A stretch of DNA of 37,195 bases from Bdellovibrionota bacterium (lineage in GTDB: Bacteria; Bdellovibrionota; Bdellovibrionia; Bdellovibrionales; JAEYZS01), in NCBI GenBank assembly GCA_963169515.1, contig CAUJEF010000096.1, positions 1 through 37,195 of the forward strand, given 5' to 3'. The position numbers and the translations under genes are program-made. The notes under the pieces were generated by a model. The model was not told the origin of the DNA, did not search any database, and worked only from the letters and a program-made list of their open reading frames with translations. Below, piece after piece: positions 3,476 through 37,195 of this stretch. The first letter of the stretch is position 1. Every line of letters starts with the position of its first letter.

Positions 3476-3657
3476 CGAGGATTCGGTTGCTTGAGGACAG
3501 TGGTAAATAACCCTACAAGGATTACATAAGGGGGCGGTTCTTGGCGATGGTGAGCAAGCTCAGCGTGTACTGAGAAGCCTAAAGTTGTTATACTGCCTAC
3601 CACCTTAAAGAAAATGGGTTATGTATCGAGAGCTTCTTGTGACCGATCCATTTTTTT
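3476..3657 (+). ncRNA. ssrS: 6S RNA
   Basis: About 175-nt rod structure: closing stem GGAT(T)CGGTTGC/GTGACCGATCC, TAACCC/GGGTTA, A-rich central bubble, TAAGG..GGCGGT/ACTGCC..CCTTA, apical CTCAG/CTGAG hairpin, followed by a T7 tract; CCACCT...GGGTT 3' strand typical of 6S. Confidence 0.8.
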
Positions 3658-7672: not shown

Positions 7673-7680
7673 TAAAAAAG

Positions 7681-7725
7681 GGTGCCAGGCACCGCCCGGC
7701 CGGTGGCCGGACGGTGCCTGGCACC
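7681..7725. repeat. REP doublet (REPIN-like)
   Basis: GGTGCCAGGCACC and GGTGCCTGGCACC in inverted orientation; 21-bp arms, one mismatch, 3-nt loop; same core flanks the RAYT gene. Confidence 0.85.
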
Positions 7726-7746: not shown

Positions 7747-9084
7747 ATGTCTAGAAAACCGCTTGTTCCCATCGAAATTTTTAAAAAACGTCGCGCAAAA
7801 CTTGCGTCTCAATTTAAAGGTGCTGCGCTAATTTTAACCGCAAACCCAGAATTTGAGCGTAACCATGATGCGGGTTATGAGTACCGTCAGGATACAAATT
7901 TCTTTTATATGACGGGCTTTGAAGAGCCGGAATCAGTATTTGTTTTCCGCCCTGGATGTAAGCCTGAAACAACATTGTTTGTTCGAAAAAGGGATCCCCT
8001 TCGTGAAACTTGGGATGGATTTCGATTTGGGCCTGAAGGCGCAAAAAAAGAGTTCGAAATGGACTCAACCCACGAAATTTCACAACTTTCGACGATATTG
8101 CCGGATTTATTAAAAGAGGTTGGACAAGTTTACTACCGCCTGCGAAAAGACGCGCACTGGGATCAAGAGATTATGAAGGCCATTGAGGAAAACAAAAAAA
8201 ACGAAGGCCGTAGTGGCAAGGGTCTTCTCGCGATACATGATCCGTCGGTGGTAATTGGGGAGGCGCGGCTAATTAAATCAGAAGAAGAAAAGCAATGGAT
8301 GCGGAAAGCCGGTGAAATTTCTGCAAATGCGCATGTCGAAGCGATGAAATTCGTAAGGCCAGGGGTGAACGAGCGCCATGTTCAGGGTGTTATTTACAAT
8401 TCGTTTTATCAACAGAATTCCCCACGGGTAGGTTACAACGCGATCGTGGCTTCTGGCGCGAATGCGTGTGTTTTGCACTATATTTTTAACGACCAAGAAT
8501 GTAAGGACGGCGATTTGCTGTTAATTGATGCCGGAGCCGAATACAATTACTACAGTGGCGATATAACAAGAACATTTCCTGTGAATGGAAAATACACAAC
8601 GGCACAAAAGCAAGTTTATGAAAAAGTTCTTTATGTACAAAAAGCCATTCTTAAAATGATTAAACCCGGGGTTTTATTCGAAGAGCTTCAAAACACGACA
8701 ATTGATATGCTTACAAATGCATTGATTGAATTAAAACTGCTCAAGGGAAAAAAGGAAGATCTGATAGCGAGCAAAGAATTTCGAAAATATTATATGCATG
8801 GCGTTTCGCATTGGTTGGGGATGGATGTCCATGATGCCGGTCTGTATCAGGTGGGTGGAAAATCACGAGCGCTCGAGCCCGGAATGTGTTTTACAGTCGA
8901 GCCAGGTCTTTATATACCGGCCGACGATGCGACCGCACCAAAAGAATTTAGAGGAATCGGCATCCGTATCGAAGACGATATCATTGTTACAGAGGATGGG
9001 TGTGAAATCCTAACCTCAAAAGTCCCAAAAGAAATTAACGAAATCGAAGCCCTAATGGGGTGCCAGGCACCCCCCGTCCGCTAA
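7747..9084 (+). CDS. pepP: Xaa-Pro aminopeptidase (aminopeptidase P)
   Basis: YRQDTNFFYMTGFEEP N-domain; LLIDAGAE..Y.GDITRTFP, HGVSHWLGMDVHD, TVEPGLY, GIGIRIEDD. Confidence 0.97.
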   Translation: MSRKPLVPIEIFKKRRAKLASQFKGAALILTANPEFERNHDAGYEYRQDTNFFYMTGFEEPESVFVFRPGCKPETTLFVRKRDPLRETWDGFRFGPEGAKKEFEMDSTHEISQLSTILPDLLKEVGQVYYRLRKDAHWDQEIMKAIEENKKNEGRSGKGLLAIHDPSVVIGEARLIKSEEEKQWMRKAGEISANAHVEAMKFVRPGVNERHVQGVIYNSFYQQNSPRVGYNAIVASGANACVLHYIFNDQECKDGDLLLIDAGAEYNYYSGDITRTFPVNGKYTTAQKQVYEKVLYVQKAILKMIKPGVLFEELQNTTIDMLTNALIELKLLKGKKEDLIASKEFRKYYMHGVSHWLGMDVHDAGLYQVGGKSRALEPGMCFTVEPGLYIPADDATAPKEFRGIGIRIEDDIIVTEDGCEILTSKVPKEINEIEALMGCQAPPVR

Positions 9085-9090
9085 TCGGAC
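9052..9090. repeat. REP element, left flank of RAYT
   Basis: CTAAT-GGGGTGCCAGGCACCCC palindrome followed by GTCCG-CTAAT-CGGAC hairpin; overlaps pepP 3' end. Confidence 0.85.
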
Positions 9091-9096
9091 GCGAAG

Positions 9097-9684
9097 TTAC
9101 TTCGGGGGCAGTCTGAATGCTTTTGAGAATTCCATTTGGGTATCTTCGTCTAAAGATAAATTTAGCCAGTCGAGATATTCCGTCCTTCTGCTAGGAATTA
9201 AGTGCCCAAATGGTGATGGCTCTATCTGGATACGGGAACTCAACAGTAAATGTTCGGCAAGGGTTGAATTTTTATAAGCTTCTGCCCGGGTTACAATTTT
9301 TGCATCAACAGGATTTCGATAAATATATTTGTGTGCGTTGTAATAATAATACTGATCAGAAATGACCTTCCATTTATACCGCCCCCCGAATACGTGATTT
9401 ATTCTCCCCGTATATTTATTTATTGCTTTGCTGATTTGTGTAAGAACAAAATGCATGGCTTCGCTGATGTTAGATCGTGGAGTAGTGCAAGTCAGATGAT
9501 AGTGGTTAGACATTAGAAGAAAACTATGAATTTTTAGAGCATAGTTTTTCTGGGCGAGCTGCAAGTTTTTGATGAATATTTCCCAGCAGATATCTTCGGG
9601 CAAGTAAAACCATTCCTTATTGTTCGACCGTCCGAAAATATGATATGGATTTGCATTATTCAAAATAATATGTCGTCTTCCCAT
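9097..9684 (-). CDS. REP-associated tyrosine transposase (RAYT, IS200/Y1 HUH superfamily)
   Basis: YHIFGRSNNK, LMSNHYH (HUH), HVFGGRY, YIYRNPVDA (catalytic Tyr region); flanked by inverted REPs; start taken at MGRRH. Confidence 0.92.
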   Translation of the reverse strand: MGRRHIILNNANPYHIFGRSNNKEWFYLPEDICWEIFIKNLQLAQKNYALKIHSFLLMSNHYHLTCTTPRSNISEAMHFVLTQISKAINKYTGRINHVFGGRYKWKVISDQYYYYNAHKYIYRNPVDAKIVTRAEAYKNSTLAEHLLLSSRIQIEPSPFGHLIPSRRTEYLDWLNLSLDEDTQMEFSKAFRLPPK

Positions 9685-9750
9685 ATGATTGGCATATGCA
9701 AGCGACCATACCAATCTATCTAGCATTATAATTGGTTTGGCAGACAAAGA

Positions 9751-9788
9751 GTCCGGTAGCCGGACAGGGGGTGCCTGGCACCCATTAG
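9751..9788. repeat. REP element, right flank of RAYT (inverted)
   Basis: GTCCGG-TAG-CCGGAC hairpin then GGGTGCCTGGCACCC-ATTAG; near reverse complement of 9052-9090. Confidence 0.85.
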
Positions 9789-24877: not shown

Positions 24878-27013
24878 ATGAATATGCCTCACTTGTACAT
24901 ACAGTTCCTGTGGCTTGCGATTTTGTACATTTCTGGTTGTGCAACCGGATACGCAAATAATCGTCCATTGACTCCAGATGAAAATGCTTGGCGAAAAACA
25001 TACCTTGAGGCTTCGGCAGCTCTTGAGTCTCAACCGAAGATAGCATGTAAAAAGTTTTTATCTCTTGCAGGATCAAGTCCGGCAGAGGGCCTATCGGAAC
25101 TCGTTAGCTTGCGAGTAATGCAGGCGTGTGGGTCATCAGAGGACCCACTGGCAATTGTTTCTAGAAATTGGCTCAAGGCTGAGGCCATGAAGCTCGGTTT
25201 TAAAACTATGAAGCAAGATTACAAGCGAGTGATCAGCTATCTAAAAACGGAAGAAGCTTTACCGCTGGGTGAAAATTTGCGTTTGGTTTATAAGGAGAAA
25301 AAGGCTCTTGCAAAGAAAGCCTTGGCGTGGGCAAAGGCGGCTAACGACAAGATTGCCGTTGACGAAATACTAAGACTTGCGCCGACGCTTTATATAGATG
25401 CAAACATCAAAGTTCCAGAGGACAAAGTATTAGAAATCGCAAATGATCTACGGACAGAGCGGAGGTTTTTAGAGGCGCGAGCCTATTACAAAAAATGGAT
25501 TGAACTGGCTCAAAAAAAGCTAGACACGACAGAAGACTACGATGAAAAACTGTTCGAGTACGCAAAAATTTATAGCGCAAAAATGGGCATACGCAATGTT
25601 TATAAGTTAGAAAACAACAAGCCACAATCTGTTGTAGAAACAGGTCGCCTTCGCAAATACTTTGAAGATGCTTACAAAAAAATCCCGGAGCCAGAAATAC
25701 TAAAATTTTATCATGATGCCGCCCTTCAATACGTGCGCGACCTTTGGACGGTTGAATCAACAGAGAAAGCCGAAGCCCAATTGGACAGGGCCATACAGTT
25801 TCTCGACGGAAAATATTCCTTGGCTCAAATGTATTGGCTAAAAGGACGAATTGCTCAAGAGAAACAAGAGTTCGAAAAGGCGTCAGAGTATTTTAAGGCC
25901 GGGCTTGGCCAATCTTCGGATAAAGAATTTACGATCGACCTTTCTTGGAATTATGCATGGAACGAATACAAGCTTTCACATTTTGAACACGTTGTTACAG
26001 AGCTGAACCGCCTTAAAGCCGAAGCCGAAAACCAAGCAAACTTTAGTGTTTATTTTAAAGCCACCCACTGGTTGGGGCGAGTTTATGAAAAGCTGGGTGA
26101 AAAGGGCAAAGCCATAAATGAATATGAAGACGGGGTGGAAAACAATACGTTCGGATACTACGGATTTTTGTCCTTCGTTCGAATGATCGAAATGAAAGAG
26201 CTGAGCCTTTCTGATTTGCCAATACACTTGGCGCCAGATGATAACCTGATCCATGACAAATTAAACACGGGCTATTGGTTAGCGTTGATCAATGAACACG
26301 ATGTCGTTTCAAGATATATTGTCGATTTTTGGTTACGGCTCGAGCAAAGCGAAAAAACATTACCAATTATCGAGTCTGTTTTGAATTTGTGTGACTTGGC
26401 ACAAACCTTTGAGCCAGGGCAAAGAATTATGGTTGAGCTTGACAATGCAACTCGCAAAAAACTGTTTGAAAAAAGCGCGCGGTGGTATTTTTCGACCCCA
26501 TATTTTGATGAGGTTGATAAACAGTCTGAGCGGTTTGGCGTTGATTATGAATATACATACGCGATCATGCGGCAAGAATCGTTATTCAATGAAAAAGCGC
26601 GGAGTGTTGCCGACGCGTTTGGGCTTTTGCAAATTTTGCCGCGGGTTGCAGAAATTGAATCTCCGCAAATCGGCGTCAATTACAAAAACCCAGAAGATTT
26701 ATACAAACCAGAGGTCAATATCCCACTGGGGGTTTTTTATCTGTCCAAGCAACGAAAGATTTTTGAAGGCTCGTGGGTTTTGACCGCCGCAAGCTACAAT
26801 GCCGGAGAGGCTGTTGTTAAAAACTGGATTGAGACGCGTTTTAACGGAAACACCCTGGAGTTTATGGAAGATATTCCTTATGCGGAGACACAAAACTATA
26901 CAAAACTGATCTTCAGAAATTATTCTTTCTACATTTTGCTCAATTCGACTTATGACAACCAAACAAAGCTCAATAAAATCGCTAATTATTTCAAGGTACC
27001 CACTCACTTTTAG
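24878..27013 (+). CDS. Slt-family lytic transglycosylase with TPR region, probable lipoprotein
   Basis: Lipobox ISGC; IMRQES (catalytic Glu), AFGLLQI, ASYNAG, IPYAETQNY. Confidence 0.93.
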   Translation: MNMPHLYIQFLWLAILYISGCATGYANNRPLTPDENAWRKTYLEASAALESQPKIACKKFLSLAGSSPAEGLSELVSLRVMQACGSSEDPLAIVSRNWLKAEAMKLGFKTMKQDYKRVISYLKTEEALPLGENLRLVYKEKKALAKKALAWAKAANDKIAVDEILRLAPTLYIDANIKVPEDKVLEIANDLRTERRFLEARAYYKKWIELAQKKLDTTEDYDEKLFEYAKIYSAKMGIRNVYKLENNKPQSVVETGRLRKYFEDAYKKIPEPEILKFYHDAALQYVRDLWTVESTEKAEAQLDRAIQFLDGKYSLAQMYWLKGRIAQEKQEFEKASEYFKAGLGQSSDKEFTIDLSWNYAWNEYKLSHFEHVVTELNRLKAEAENQANFSVYFKATHWLGRVYEKLGEKGKAINEYEDGVENNTFGYYGFLSFVRMIEMKELSLSDLPIHLAPDDNLIHDKLNTGYWLALINEHDVVSRYIVDFWLRLEQSEKTLPIIESVLNLCDLAQTFEPGQRIMVELDNATRKKLFEKSARWYFSTPYFDEVDKQSERFGVDYEYTYAIMRQESLFNEKARSVADAFGLLQILPRVAEIESPQIGVNYKNPEDLYKPEVNIPLGVFYLSKQRKIFEGSWVLTAASYNAGEAVVKNWIETRFNGNTLEFMEDIPYAETQNYTKLIFRNYSFYILLNSTYDNQTKLNKIANYFKVPTHF

Positions 27014-27069
27014 CGTAACGGCGCAGCAATTTATGCTGCGCCGTTACGCCAAAAGTGAGTGGGTACCTT
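26993..27069. repeat. Long inverted repeat (REPIN-like, may also terminate transcription)
   Basis: 36-bp arms with one mismatch and 5-nt loop; followed by T tract; overlaps last codons of the Slt gene. Confidence 0.85.
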
Positions 27070-33042: not shown

Positions 33043-33597
33043 CTAAAAACCCACCAGAATTCCGATTCCAAATAAAATAAATAGCGCGCTTGCAATTCTA
33101 TGCACCAATTTCATTGGGGCCTTTTCGGTAAACTTATGACCGAAAAAAACAGCAAGTCCATCGGCAACAAGCATTCCCATTGTCGTGCCTACCGTGACCA
33201 TCACAGGAGCCGCAAATTTTGCTCCTAGCGCAACTGTTGCCAGCTGAGTTTTATCGCCCATTTCAGCAAAAAAGAAAGCCACTATCGTTGTTGAGAAGGG
33301 TCCCCAGCCGTGCTTATCCTGGTAGCCCTCGTCTTTATCCGGCATCAACATCCACAACCCAAAACCGATGAATGTTGCCGCTAATGTCCACTTCAATACC
33401 TCTGCAGAGACGTAGTAAGTAATAAATGTACCTACAGAGCTTGCAAGTGCATGGTTCAAAAGAGTGGCCACCAAAATTCCCAGCATTATCGGAACTGGTT
33501 TGCGAAATCGCGCCGCGAGCACAAGCGCGAGAAGCTGAGTTTTGTCACCCATCTCACTTACAAAAACTAAAAGAAACGAATTTATAATTGCTTCCAT
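33043..33597 (-). CDS. TMEM165/GDT1 (UPF0016) family Mn2+ exporter
   Basis: Two EMGDKTQL motifs; multiple TMs; upstream Mn riboswitch. Confidence 0.95.
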   Translation of the reverse strand: MEAIINSFLLVFVSEMGDKTQLLALVLAARFRKPVPIMLGILVATLLNHALASSVGTFITYYVSAEVLKWTLAATFIGFGLWMLMPDKDEGYQDKHGWGPFSTTIVAFFFAEMGDKTQLATVALGAKFAAPVMVTVGTTMGMLVADGLAVFFGHKFTEKAPMKLVHRIASALFILFGIGILVGF

Positions 33598-33599
33598 GG

Positions 33600-33805
33600 A
33601 AACCTCACTTGCTTTGCCGTGAGGTCGGAAGTCTTTGGTCCCAGAACGAACCTTTTAGACACAAGACGACACGGCGTTGTTAAAACACCAGTGCCAGTCT
33701 CGCCAAGAAAAGCTTTCGCTTTTCCAAATGTGCCGGGGTTTAAACCCAGTATGTCGACACATCATTCCGATAAAAAATCGGATCGACTACTCCCTAACAA
33801 TCAAA
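33600..33805 (-). ncRNA. yybP-ykoY manganese riboswitch with expression platform
   Basis: Minus strand AGGGAGTAG (33795-33787), GTCGACATAC (33758-33749), TTGGCGAGACT (33706-33696); ACCTCAC/GTGAGGT hairpin sequesters the RBS. Confidence 0.9.
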
Positions 33806-33842
33806 GGGTACGGCATTAGGAGCATCAGTCAAGTAGCAGGTG

Positions 33843-34051
33843 GTTCGAACATTATAGAAATTGGCGGAGAGGGCCGTAAAGTAGGCGAACTCTCTGCCGT
33901 GGTTATATTTGAGTTTGAGGTTTATCCCGAGCCGAAAATCCTGACAAAAGCTGAGCTAACGCATTTAATGCGTTTACATGGCACCACTGTTGCGGTGGCC
34001 AAATTCCTTGGCTGCAGCCAGCCCCACGTGTCCGAACGATTAAACGGCTAG
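33843..34051 (+). repeat. Junction repeat copy 1: attP-like site plus headless HTH-coding tail
   Basis: TGGCGGAGAGGG core inside GTTCG...CGAAC symmetry; about 190-bp direct repeat with 35943-36138. Confidence 0.8.
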
Positions 34052-34569
34052 TGCTTTACAAATCCTGGGCAGGTATTTACCCATGCCTCGTTGTTACTGA
34101 GACATTTTTTAGAATTACAAATAGTATCGAGGGTTAATGCTTCGTAATTTACTTTGTGACGACCCAGGGGGCCAAACTGAATAAGTGCTTTTTGCTCCTG
34201 GGTGTTTTGAACATTTTTGAGTTCGTCACGAGCGCAAATTTTTACTTGTGATCCTGATTGCAGTATTTTTTCAATTCTGTGCTCTTGAGAAGAGCAGGTG
34301 TCTTTATCCTGATGTGTTGATTGCATAATCTCCAACACTTCATTTTTATCATTTAAAATGTACATGAAATACTGATGTCTCCAATTATTTTCAGCTTCAG
34401 CATTAAAAAAAAGGCAATTCTGTCGGACACGATTTGAACTTACCTGAATGACATGAAGATCATCTGCTTTGGTATGAAATGTTTCGATATTAAAAACAGG
34501 GGCGGACTGGCATCCGGCAATAAAAAGATACAGCGATAGCACGATGAATCTATTTTTTAAGCGTCGCAT
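34048..34569 (-). CDS. Cys-rich hypothetical lipoprotein
   Basis: Lipobox IAGC; six further cysteines; overlaps upstream SLT-like gene by 20 bp. Confidence 0.8.
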   Translation of the reverse strand: MRRLKNRFIVLSLYLFIAGCQSAPVFNIETFHTKADDLHVIQVSSNRVRQNCLFFNAEAENNWRHQYFMYILNDKNEVLEIMQSTHQDKDTCSSQEHRIEKILQSGSQVKICARDELKNVQNTQEQKALIQFGPLGRHKVNYEALTLDTICNSKKCLSNNEAWVNTCPGFVKH

Positions 34570-35227
34570 AGGCCTCCCTATATTTTTTGAGTCCAGCCTT
34601 TTTATATTCTGAATCGCTTTTTAATAAACCTTTGTATTCTAAAATTATTTCTTCGTGGCTTGGAGTCCTCTTAAGTTTACTTGCGGCAGTTTCTTTCTTG
34701 CGATGTAGCCACCGAACTGCCATTGGTATCGAGATATTCGGATCTTTGAGATCTTTTTGTCGAATATCTTTGAAAATAAACTCTTTAGCTTCGCCTTTCG
34801 GATCTTGCAGGATTTTTAAGGTTTTCTTTGTGATTTGAGCGATGCCAACTGCAATTTTTCTATTTCCAAGAGGGTCCGGGTTAAAATCAGATTCGCTTGA
34901 GATAAGCGCTTTTACGACATCTGGATCGAGTGGCGGATCGGCATTAAATTTCTTGTTAAAATAATCCGTCCATACGGCGATGACTTCATCGTACTTATCA
35001 GCACTTTTATATTTTTCCGTTAATTTTCCTTTGGTGGGATACGCAATTCCCTTACGGTCATAACCTTTAAAGATGGCCGCAATTTCGCCAGCATCTAAAT
35101 ATGTGCCTTTCAAGCGCCGCAGATGACGATCTCTTATCGTGATTCCCGTTGGATTTTTCTCACTCACGGGAATATGCATGGGATGTTCCCGAACAGTCGT
35201 GACTTTTTTGCGAGGCCTTTTAGGCAT
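34550..35227 (-). CDS. Lysozyme-like (SLT-domain) protein without signal peptide
   Basis: DPDVVKALISSESDF (catalytic Glu motif), AVGIAQI, L.DP..SI..AVRWL. Confidence 0.75.
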   Translation of the reverse strand: MPKRPRKKVTTVREHPMHIPVSEKNPTGITIRDRHLRRLKGTYLDAGEIAAIFKGYDRKGIAYPTKGKLTEKYKSADKYDEVIAVWTDYFNKKFNADPPLDPDVVKALISSESDFNPDPLGNRKIAVGIAQITKKTLKILQDPKGEAKEFIFKDIRQKDLKDPNISIPMAVRWLHRKKETAASKLKRTPSHEEIILEYKGLLKSDSEYKKAGLKKYREAYATLKK

Positions 35228-35265
35228 AACTTCAATTTATCTTAAAATATGTGAGCGCCTCAAGA

Positions 35266-35571
35266 TTAATAGTGCGGAATCACTGCGAGAATAGTGAGCT
35301 GTTTCGGCTTTGGGCCGTAGGCCCATAGTATTCGATGAGCTTGTGGTGTGTTGTTCTGAACATATGAACTAAATACTTTCAATCTATATACTTTTTCGAA
35401 TGCCTCGATAGGGTGGGAGTTCAAGCCTGGGTGCATGGGGTTACGAGATAAACTGCCTAAAGCCTTTTTCAATTGTTTTTGAAGTCCAACGCGTCCGGCA
35501 TCAGCCATGATGGCTTTAACCTGGAGCTCCGATTCGGCAGTCATTCTCAACTCAAATGGACCGTGGCTCAC
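35266..35571 (-). CDS. RelE/ParE-superfamily-like toxin
   Basis: 101 aa; L.RNP.HPGLNSH, RILW, LTILAVIPH pattern; directly downstream of AbrB-like gene. Confidence 0.65.
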   Translation of the reverse strand: MSHGPFELRMTAESELQVKAIMADAGRVGLQKQLKKALGSLSRNPMHPGLNSHPIEAFEKVYRLKVFSSYVQNNTPQAHRILWAYGPKPKQLTILAVIPHY

Positions 35572-35574
35572 AGC

Positions 35575-35820
35575 CTAATCAATCCAATCTGGCGGCACTT
35601 TTTTTGTTAAGCCTTTATTGAAATCAGAGACTGACTTTTTTAAACTTTCAAGAACTTCAGCTTCCGCCAAAGTTACCTTTTTCTGTGGAACAAGATGGAG
35701 CGAGCCGTCTTTTAACGACTCAATGGCAAATGACCCAACGTCCTTGCGAAGCTCTTTGGGGAGAGTAATCCGGCCACGCTCATCTATTTCTACTGTTTTG
35801 TTTTTTTTTCTTGCACCCAT
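35575..35820 (-). CDS. AbrB/MazE/SpoVT-family antitoxin
   Basis: VEIDERGRITLPKELRK swapped-hairpin motif. Confidence 0.85.
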   Translation of the reverse strand: MGARKKNKTVEIDERGRITLPKELRKDVGSFAIESLKDGSLHLVPQKKVTLAEAEVLESLKKSVSDFNKGLTKKVPPDWID

Positions 35821-35826
35821 ATCGCT

Positions 35827-35855
35827 ATTATACCCATTTTCCCAATGTGGGTAAA
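35827..35855 (-). promoter_or_regulatory. sigma70 promoter with overlapping operator for the AbrB/RelE pair
   Basis: TTTACC-N17-TATAAT ending 6 nt before ATG; TACCCA/TGGGTA inverted repeat at 35831-35853. Confidence 0.65.
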
Positions 35856-35923
35856 TAGGAATTTGTGGCGTTCGCCTACTTTAGCAGCTGAATTCATCCA
35901 ACGTAGTGAAGTTTATGGCGTAT

Positions 35924-36138
35924 TTTAAAAATCTATCAAAACTGGCGGAGAGGGCCATAAAGTAGGCGAACTCTCTGCGTTAGTTATATTTGAGTTTGAG
36001 GCTTATCCTGAGTCGAAAATCCTGACGACCAATGAGTTAAAGCGTTTATTGCGCTTATACGGCACCACTGTAGCGGTAGCGAAGTTTCTTGGCTGCAGCC
36101 AATCGCATGTATCAGTGCGGTTAAATTCAAAAAATTAG
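35924..36138 (+). repeat. Junction repeat copy 2: att-like site plus headless HTH-coding tail
   Basis: TGGCGGAGAGGGCCATAAAGTAGGCGAAC; colinear without indels with copy 1; in-frame stop at 35926-35928 and no ATG. Confidence 0.8.
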
Positions 36139-36175: not shown

Positions 36176-36520
36176 GTGGAAGTTAAGCCGAAGACTCTTG
36201 TCATCTATGAAACCGCAAATGGCAAAGAGCCATTCAATGAATGGCTTAATAGCCTTAAAGATAAACGAGTCAAGGCAACGGTCGATGCAAGGTTGATTCG
36301 GGTTCGTAAAGGCAATCTTGGTCTATGCCGCTCGCTGGGCGAGGGGCTATGGGAGTTGAAATTCGATCTCGGACCAGGCTTTCGAATTTACTTTGGGCAG
36401 CACGGAGATTCGATTGTCGTATTGCTGCATGGTGGAGATAAGAAAACCCAATCGCGGGACATTGAAACCGCAAAAACATATTGGCTAGATTACCTGAAAG
36501 ATCAGGGAGTAAAGCTGTAG
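36176..36520 (+). CDS. RelE/HigB-like addiction module toxin (HI1419-upstream type)
   Basis: GKEPF.EWL.SLKD, RL.R...GNLG, GLWELK.D.GPGFRIYFG, LLHGGDKKTQSRDI; GTG start. Confidence 0.92.
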   Translation: MEVKPKTLVIYETANGKEPFNEWLNSLKDKRVKATVDARLIRVRKGNLGLCRSLGEGLWELKFDLGPGFRIYFGQHGDSIVVLLHGGDKKTQSRDIETAKTYWLDYLKDQGVKL

Positions 36521-36531
36521 GAGTTTTAAAT

Positions 36532-36840
36532 ATGGCTCGTAATATGAAAAAATACGAAGATGATCTTTCTGCTCGTCTTAAAGATCAGGAATACGCCGTT
36601 GAATATTTAAATGCCGTTTTAGAAGATGCTGGCGATGATCAGCAAGAGCGTTTCTTGGTAGCTCTAAAAGATGTGGCTAAAGCCCACGGTGTCACGAGCG
36701 TTGCCCACGATTCAAATGTGGCGCGTGAGGCGCTGTATCGTGTTCTTTCAGACAAGGGCAACCCAGAGCTTGCAACGCTGCTTTCAGTTTTGTCGGCGCT
36801 CGGGCTTAAGCTTAGAATTGACTCGGGCAAGGCCTCTTAA
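36532..36840 (+). CDS. HigA-like HTH addiction module antidote (HI1420 type)
   Basis: AGGAG RBS; A.EYL...LE, FL.AL.DVAKA.G...VA, REALYR.LS.KGNP...TL. Confidence 0.92.
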   Translation: MARNMKKYEDDLSARLKDQEYAVEYLNAVLEDAGDDQQERFLVALKDVAKAHGVTSVAHDSNVAREALYRVLSDKGNPELATLLSVLSALGLKLRIDSGKAS

Positions 36841-37001: not shown

Positions 37002-37121
37002 ATGTCCAAATTAATGAAAATTAGCATTCTTTTGTTTTGCACAGTTGCCGTAGCTGACCTGCCCCCACGGTTTGTACCAGTACAATTAGTCTTTTCATCA
37101 AGCAACATGTATTTTCCCTGA
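37002..37121 (+). other. Short 39-aa ORF with signal-peptide-like start; small protein or truncated gene
   Basis: AGGAG RBS; MSKLMKISILLFCTVAVA; near-sigma54 motif TGGCATGTTAATTTCA at 36957-36972. Confidence 0.3.
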
Positions 37122-37195
37122 TGTAAAAGTTAATGGTGCTGGTGGTTTATAATTCAATGAGCTGTGCGGTCTGACATGATTGTAATGCTTCTTCC

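Follow-up and report, generated by a model that had tools for sequence, protein, structure and literature searches.

The integrase of the myxophage Mx8, IntP/IntX, has its phage attachment site (attP) within the int gene: according to the available text of PMC6070905, integration makes a recombinant gene whose 3' end is new, and the properties of its product are altered. The SSV-type 'suicidal' integrases of archaea likewise carry the attachment (att) site in the integrase gene, which integration splits (PMC8371274, PMC7253208, both as far as their text was available). As described in the accessible part of PMC8371274, these enzymes are tyrosine recombinases exclusive to archaea, and their gene is cut into two inactive parts. 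Serine integrases, in turn, are not known to target tRNA genes, according to the part of the Islander paper available to us. Here we describe a 37,195-nt stretch of DNA (the window), which is the whole of contig C96 in a genome of a Bdellovibrionota bacterium (G000; 2.38 Mb, 173 contigs, 96% complete). It contains two similar coding tails without start codons, each opening with a short piece of a tRNA-Ser gene read backwards. Very probably these tails belong to an array of large serine recombinase (LSR) elements at the 3' end of a tRNA-Ser(GGA) gene, with attP lying inside the LSR gene and the tail of the enzyme being swapped on integration. In what follows C47 is another contig of the same genome, and numbers beginning with L or P denote loci and proteins of relatives.

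The two tails lie in the only long direct repeat that a repeat search reported in the window, 33853-34044 and 35934-36125, which is 192 nt long, 81% identical and ungapped. Both copies translate to GGEG[R/H]KVGELSA.VIFEFE.YPE.KILT..EL..L.RL.GTTVAVAKFLGCSQ.HVS.RLN. An earlier note, made from the letters of this stretch alone, had assigned this peptide, free of indels, to 33863-34051 and 35944-36138, and both the ungapped alignment and the translation bear it out. Over 61 codons the copies differ at 34 nucleotides, of which 20 are third codon positions (permutation p ~0.0008). The codon differences comprise 16 synonymous and 12 non-synonymous changes, with a Nei-Gojobori ratio of non-synonymous to synonymous rates (dN/dS) of 0.146; the 16 and 13 counted by hand in the earlier note are correct as well, because the 62nd codon (G/S) makes the thirteenth. 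The note had also pointed to a single nucleotide change in the first 11 codons, to the lack of a shared upstream start and to a TAA ahead of copy 2. All three are there: the one difference is at offset 13, copy 2 is preceded by an in-frame TAA, five codons before the match, and its frame offers no ATG, GTG or TTG ahead of codon 41, and copy 1 has an internal GTG that is absent from copy 2, so that no start codon is common to both.

The genome contains exactly these two copies of the tail, and the minus strand of the window carries none. Compared with eight relatives, the tails gave dN/dS values of 0.08-0.33, so the comparison across homologues that the earlier note had suggested indicates purifying selection. 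For codons 13-60, which encode the putative helix-turn-helix (HTH) part, the values were 0.08-0.30 among pairs with computable dS, and these low ratios argue that the domain is used as a protein.

No recombinase gene is present within the window. The genome's only LSR (Recombinase-domain) gene is at C47:475-2166, and the order of its domains is Resolvase, Recombinase, Zn_ribbon. The resolvase-type catalytic domain is recognizable by PF00239 (E 8.9e-33, residues 5-158) and by the N-terminus ...YIRVSTEEQ, and PF07508 (E 4.9e-16) and PF13408 (E 3e-9) are both above their cut-offs. An intact tRNA-Ser(GGA) gene, found by ARAGORN at C47:2067-2156, lies on the strand opposite to the LSR, and the LSR frame runs antisense through all of it: the 563-aa protein reaches ...IVGSHTIKVGGEG (...KVGGEG) and then continues for 28 residues of tRNA-antisense translation. 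The 12-nt sequence TGGCGGAGAGGG, the reverse complement of the tRNA-Ser 3' end (CCA, discriminator and acceptor strand), opens the antisense tRNA at C47:2067 and, identically, both tails. At all three sites (C47 LSR, tail 1 and tail 2) GGC-GGA-GAG-GG is read in one phase. Since core and phase are the same, a crossover in the core would fuse the recombinase body in frame with a tail. The idea of the earlier note that the att site lies inside a recombinase gene, whose C-terminus is swapped by recombination, is thus supported: on C47 the LSR frame crosses the same 12-nt core.

The recombinase that the note had expected behind the tails therefore exists in the same genome; it lies outside the window, and an insertion sequence (IS) would stand between the two. 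At the end of the window lies the C-terminal part of an IS3-type orfB on the minus strand (rve transposase), and the last 141 nt of the window recur on contigs C97 and C102. C47, for its part, opens with a truncated IS3-like orfA, also on the minus strand, of which the N-terminal part is on the contig and the rest lies beyond its edge. Judging by these ends, one IS3-type copy plausibly bridges the end of the window and the start of C47, in the correct order and orientation. This linkage is our inference; no other arrangement would bring the single LSR of the genome together with the only two tails in it. If the contigs are linked in this way, the locus carries the signature of an Islander-type island: tRNA-Ser(GGA) at C47:2067-2156, fragments at 33862 and 35943, and the LSR between them.

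The arms of the sites follow the rule known for LSRs. Counting from the T of TGG, GTTCG is at -19 in 8/8 LSR-side arms, CGAAC or TGAAC is at +19, in the T-loop, in 10/10 tRNA arms, and CGAAC is at +24 in 12 of 13 tail arms, the exception being L060 with AGAAC. The element arms are mirror images of each other about a centre at +4/+5, where Ser-type elements have GG, and the tRNA arm carries the motif 5 bp nearer the centre than the element arms do. A 5-bp offset between attP-type and attB-type half-sites is described for serine integrases in the available part of PMC11722253, and the offset seen here is therefore independent support for these being LSR att sites. The tRNA T-loop (GGTTCGAAT) would then serve as the B'-type half-site, as far as motif and spacing indicate. 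The same geometry accounts for two patterns of conservation: the near-identity of the first 11 tail codons follows from their being the P' half-site, and VGS on the LSR side and KVGE on the tail side owe their conservation to the two motif copies by which they are encoded. The closest relative of the C47 recombinase, L060 (73% identity), reads into no recognisable tRNA; after its core, in L060 16000-16060, ARAGORN found no tRNA, and the CGAAC motif is present at the P'-type distance (+24). This site may be degraded or secondary.

Tail relatives were found in 12/60 related genomes searched, at 27 loci of a species-representative collection (24 in metagenome-assembled genomes of Bdellovibrio, Bacteriovorax or Oligoflexia type, 3 broadly labelled) and at a further 37 metagenome loci. 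Viral contigs gave a single 12-residue chance match and nothing suggesting a phage. The same layout, consisting of a tail, 1.4-4.4 kb of cargo, an LSR on the same strand and a tRNA-Ser or tRNA-Leu gene on the opposite strand, is present in L066, L068, L076, L077, L079, L095, L075 and L065, and recombinase-less versions or tandem arrays in L019, L072, L073 and L081. The tails thus recur beside LSRs, as the earlier note had supposed. In all eight evaluable elements (G000, L060, L066, L068, L075, L076, L077 and L095) LSR and tail alike have the T of TGG as the third base of a codon; this count was partly read by hand and covers neither L065, which has a frameshift in a decayed tail, nor L079, whose left end is off the contig. 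Among the eight phase-matched elements LSR identity is down to 47-73%, and the tRNAs differ.

This distribution also bears on another account of the repeat, namely a simple segmental duplication, or the ends of one element inserted in a small HTH gene, with no serine recombinase involved. Two direct repeats flanking a 1.9-kb block of cargo are what it would produce. Nevertheless we hold it to be very improbable, given that the copies are 19% diverged with a coding pattern and each start with the tRNA-Ser 3' end, that the same tail stands beside tRNA-Ser or tRNA-Leu and LSR genes in other genomes, and that no full-length stand-alone HTH gene with its own start occurs among the library matches and tail copies. 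An integron cassette array was rejected, as the repeats are coding tails that start with a tRNA 3' end, not attC hairpins, and the recombinase is of the serine family.

The relatives include a sister group at tRNA-Leu genes (TAG, TAA, CAA, GAG, CAG; L068, L076, L077, L079, L075, L071, L106 and L083), in which the core is TGGTGC or TGGTGG and the tails start GA[QE]V.EVDE, not GGEG.KVGE. It would seem that the element family has specialised in class II (long-arm) tRNAs, those for Ser and Leu. In two family members the GDT1 gene has no tRNA nearby. The tRNA-Ser(GGA) loci of 29 relatives include several unoccupied sites, with a terminator abutting the tRNA, and the LSR is present in 0/29.

Three natural in-frame fusions of an LSR and a tail were found. 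In G006:C140 the C-terminal half of an LSR runs into the tail. P0020 is a divergent LSR of 483 aa with the tail at 418-476 (E 1e-9 to the C47 enzyme), and P0013 is a partial fusion reading ...GSHTIKFGGEN.... Such fusions are expected from excised forms or from internal junctions of tandem arrays. A search for longer proteins carrying the tail, which was limited by shared words and is weak evidence, gave none.

An AlphaFold2 model of the tail, computed with a 36-sequence family alignment, has low confidence in the N-terminal half and three helices at residues 30-62 with a predicted local distance difference test score (pLDDT) >90. Pfam matches in the tail family, all below cut-off, are to HTH_50 in 10/36 members and to P22_Cro in 7/36; the window tails themselves have no Pfam or NCBIfam match. 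Foldseek returned nothing better than E 0.5 for the tail, and its best local superpositions are on HTH domains (0.9-1.4 A over 30-33 residues). According to the model, the tail comprises two parts, a flexible linker and, behind it, an HTH-like domain of three helices. The putative HTH that the earlier note had seen in the C-terminal part agrees with the modelled helices; the family matches stay below cut-off. A PDB profile match to 8vd6 (E 9.9e-10) was rejected, as its score is summed over five weak repeats of what the available part of the entry presents as a designed repeat protein. The most conserved stretch of the tail family is FE.EAYPEPK.L at tail residues ~15-28 (33905-33946 and 35986-36027), in which E24 and L28 are invariant and P25 and K26 nearly so. 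It is outside both the predicted att arm and the helices, and is modelled with low confidence.

Could the tails be proteins in their own right? In the integrated state they might be translated alone from an unconventional or read-through start and act as small Cro-like regulators, their fusion to a recombinase being incidental. The weak P22_Cro and HTH_50 matches agree with this, as does their position, where many elements keep a regulator, and gene callers made 46 of the 56 tail matches in the representative library small proteins of <=131 aa. Upstream of the core, however, the 67 tail copies are mutually unrelated, more than 100 codons are open in 2/67 and neither of these is LSR-like. No stand-alone protein with a conserved start of its own, which the earlier note had named as evidence that would overturn its reading, occurs among the 67. 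With no conserved start or upstream sequence, a TAA five codons before copy 2, conservation that starts exactly at the tRNA-derived core, a phase that matches the recombinase in 8/8 and in-frame fusions in existence, independent translation of the tails appears improbable.

Within the window, ordinary chromosomal genes fill positions 1 to ~33807. The last of them before junction 1 encodes a GDT1-family cation exporter (33043-33597, minus strand), and upstream of this GDT1/UPF0016 exporter is a manganese (yybP-ykoY) riboswitch-like leader (33705-33807, minus strand; E 1.9e-8, below the Rfam gathering score). The island junction is only ~55 nt upstream of the leader, and the promoter of the exporter may now sit in element-derived DNA. 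From 33862 to its end the window is, with the same high probability as the explanation to which this belongs, the left part of a tandem array of two small integrative elements (Table 1).

Table 1 Features of the element array at the right end of the window.
Feature	Position	Strand	Basis or remarks
Left arm, junction 1	33825-33861	+	P-type half-site remnant; GTTCG 33843-33847, 19 nt before TGG
Core 1	33862-33873	+	TGGCGGAGAGGG; predicted crossover dinucleotide GG 33866-33867, inferred from motif positions
Tail 1	33863-34051	+	62 codons and TAG; P' half-site CGAAC 33886-33890, conserved VVIFEFEVYPEPK linker, three-helix HTH-like domain (modelled)
Element 1 cargo, 173-aa predicted lipoprotein	34048-34569	-	Open reading frame (ORF); weak lipid-attachment motif match below cut-off
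Element 1 cargo, 225-aa lytic transglycosylase (SLT) domain protein	34550-35227	-	PF01464, E 8.1e-9, above cut-off
Element 1 cargo, 101-aa ORF, candidate toxin	35266-35571	-	No family match; position beside AbrB/MazE-type gene only
Element 1 cargo, 81-aa AbrB/MazE-type antitoxin-like protein	35575-35820	-	PF04014 E 5.8e-5 and TIGR01439 E 1.3e-5, both below cut-off
Element 1, right end; junction 2, left arm	35924-35942	+	Inner 8 nt of P-type arm, CTATCAAA, identical to C47 recombinase-side arm; distal GTTCG lost
Core 2	35943-35954	+	TGGCGGAGAGGG
Tail 2	35944-36138	+	64 codons and TAG; P' half-site CGAAC 35967-35971
Element 2 cargo, RelE/ParE-family (HigB/Gp49-like) toxin	36176-36520	+	TIGR02683 E 1.8e-33, above cut-off; PF05973
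Element 2 cargo, HI1420-type antidote (HTH antitoxin)	36532-36840	+	PF21716 E 6e-21; TIGR02684
IS3-type end at contig edge	37055-37195	-	ORF 37098-37193; breaks the assembly, rest of element 2 with LSR presumably on C47

Element 1 (33862-35942, 2081 nt) has an intact tail and no recombinase gene. It looks like an element that lost its recombinase gene by deletion, since junction 2 keeps the inner P-type arm and has lost the distal motif. CIME-like (cis-mobilizable) elements, which are recombinase-less derivatives of tRNA islands, offer a likeness to it. Junction 1 has a complete P-type left arm directly adjoining the riboswitch leader, and this arm resembles the last codons of the recombinase gene (translation VAGGSNIIEIGGEG, compared with IVGSHTIKVGGEG on C47). 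It would be the remnant of a still older element, and in that case the left edge of the array has kept no canonical attL. Element 2, from 35943 onward, would consist of a HigB/HigA-type toxin-antitoxin pair, the IS insertion and the LSR. In Logan contigs, four runs from four studies have the same integrated arrangement, with contigs bridging both junctions; the bridging contigs are records 2 and 12 for junction 1, and records 7 and 30 for junction 2. No circle joint, empty site or loss of element 1 was found in the Logan contigs of the four runs; such contigs drop rare forms and are uninformative on excision.

The rest of the window has features of other kinds. A 6S RNA (SsrS) gene is at 3481-3649 on the plus strand (63.8 bits, above the gathering score). 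GC-rich palindromic repeats (GGGTGCCAGGCACC...), in direct and inverted copies, are at 7677-7725, 9058-9091 and 9751-9786 and flank a 216-aa ORF (9097-9747, minus strand) with a weak match to IS200-like Y1 transposases, an arrangement that resembles repetitive extragenic palindromic (REP) elements with their REP-associated tyrosine transposase (RAYT). Directly after the gene of a 711-aa SLT/TPR protein, a 36-nt inverted repeat at 26993-27069, 97% complementary with a 5-nt loop, forms a very strong hairpin, presumably a terminator.

How would such an array work? The LSR gene would sit at the far right end of the array and read outward across the attachment core. Integration into tRNA-Ser would cut off the HTH-like tail, and excision would restore it. 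The chromosomal enzyme would thus be the 563-aa form without an HTH, its last 28 residues read from the antisense tRNA. In the excised circle the LSR frame would cross attP into the left-end tail, adding the linker and the HTH-like domain and giving, by arithmetic, ~593-595 aa. Because integration of Mx8 gives its integrase a new 3' end and altered properties, a state-dependent change in the enzyme can be proposed here too. By this analogy we favour the view that the tail would act in the free element alone, where it would tune the activity or directionality of the enzyme or control genes of the element.

A more specific version makes the HTH tail a built-in directionality device, so that the 3' end of the integrase gene would tell the element whether it is integrated or free. 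The full-length enzyme, made only in the circle, would be integration-proficient and would perhaps repress or activate element genes through the HTH; the tail-less chromosomal enzyme would excise without a separate directionality factor, or be silent. The element would then have in a serine recombinase what Mx8 has in IntP/IntX, and it would target class II tRNA genes through mimicry of their T-loop. We regard it as a tentative proposal, which in this exact form is rather unlikely to be right.

In several relatives (L059, L062, L087, L088, L095, L097, L119 and L020) a small resolvase/invertase-type serine recombinase gene follows the tail stop after ~30-90 nt on the same strand, and the frame after the tail in L003/L058 also matches this arrangement. 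The small recombinase of L020 has 224 aa, with Resolvase above cut-off and HTH_7 slightly short of its own (E 2.9e-4; 21.3 bits, cut-off 23.8). Once the element is circular, the small recombinase gene would come directly after the LSR-tail gene, and the two would resemble an operon that exists only after excision. The two elements of the window have no small serine recombinase gene after the tail. Elsewhere in the genome there is a second resolvase-domain match, C75:2045-2458 (minus strand), which is broken by one TGA and one TAG and is probably a small serine recombinase pseudogene.

The AlphaFold2 model of the natural fusion P0020 has a normal LSR body with a long coiled coil (helices 251-298 and 303-338; the model is of P0020, not of the C47 protein), then ~50 residues with pLDDT <50, and then the same three-helix unit. 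The HTH unit makes no contact with the enzyme body, and the model gives no mechanistic clue. Such a loosely tethered domain is also what would be seen if the layout is as described and the swap has no regulatory meaning, attP merely overlapping the 3' end of the gene and the tail being dispensable and its loss neutral. C-terminal extensions of LSRs vary and are often dispensable, which favours this main rival. Yet a dispensable extension is expected to decay and the tail is under purifying selection, and the phase is kept in 8/8 elements despite 47-73% LSR identity and different tRNA targets. We therefore see a neutral overlap as a serious possibility, although the odds are against it.

Several points weigh against our explanation as a whole. 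The link between the window and C47 is purely inferential and crosses a repeated IS. Element 1 is without a recombinase gene, and the arm at junction 1 is P-type, not B-type, with canonical attL absent, so the array may be unable to excise. The fusions are rare (n=3) and comprise one truncated pseudogene and two partial proteins, and the search for longer proteins found none. The HTH call, finally, draws on a model and on below-cut-off matches, with nothing better than E 0.5 from Foldseek.

Serine integrases owe their value as genome-engineering tools to a strict directionality, for which a separate directionality factor is normally required. If the explanation above is true, an enzyme that gains or loses its own C-terminal domain through the very reaction that it carries out would be controlled in a new way. 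Targeting of tRNA genes through recognition of the T-loop would extend serine integrases to landing sites that are conserved in many bacteria. The layout would also explain a class of start-less orphan ORFs that are annotated as small hypothetical proteins. A literature search, with incomplete coverage of subscription journals, found no serine integrase with attP in its own gene or targeting tRNA genes.

These findings allow a comparison with the known systems. By domain content and by the site geometry read from sequence, the C47 enzyme is a large serine recombinase: it shares with the LSRs (Listeria A118/LI Int, SPbeta SprA, phiC31 and Bxb1) the domain order, the dyad-symmetric att arms and the 5-bp P/B offset. 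The nearest NCBIfam models are CcrB and XisF, with scores far below their equivalog cut-offs. Unlike in known LSRs, a tRNA gene (Ser or Leu) serves as target through its 3' end and T-loop, attP is inside the enzyme's own reading frame, and an extra C-terminal HTH-like domain would be present only in the attP state. As in Islander-type tRNA islands, and provided that C47 adjoins the window, one end has the intact tRNA and the other end a displaced piece of its 3' part, and the elements are in tandem, one of them recombinase-less; in contrast to such islands, the fragment is only 12 nt long, the recombinase is of the serine family and a conserved coding tail comes after each fragment. The likeness to Mx8 is that the crossover core is within the integrase frame and that integration changes the protein. 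However, Mx8 Int is the tyrosine recombinase of a phage, whereas here a serine recombinase of 3-6 kb non-viral elements would have a discrete HTH-like domain removed. Unlike in the SSV-type integrases, the catalytic and DNA-binding body stays intact and the tail alone is exchanged. The elements thus work like the Mx8 and SSV-type systems and are not members of their tyrosine-recombinase families.

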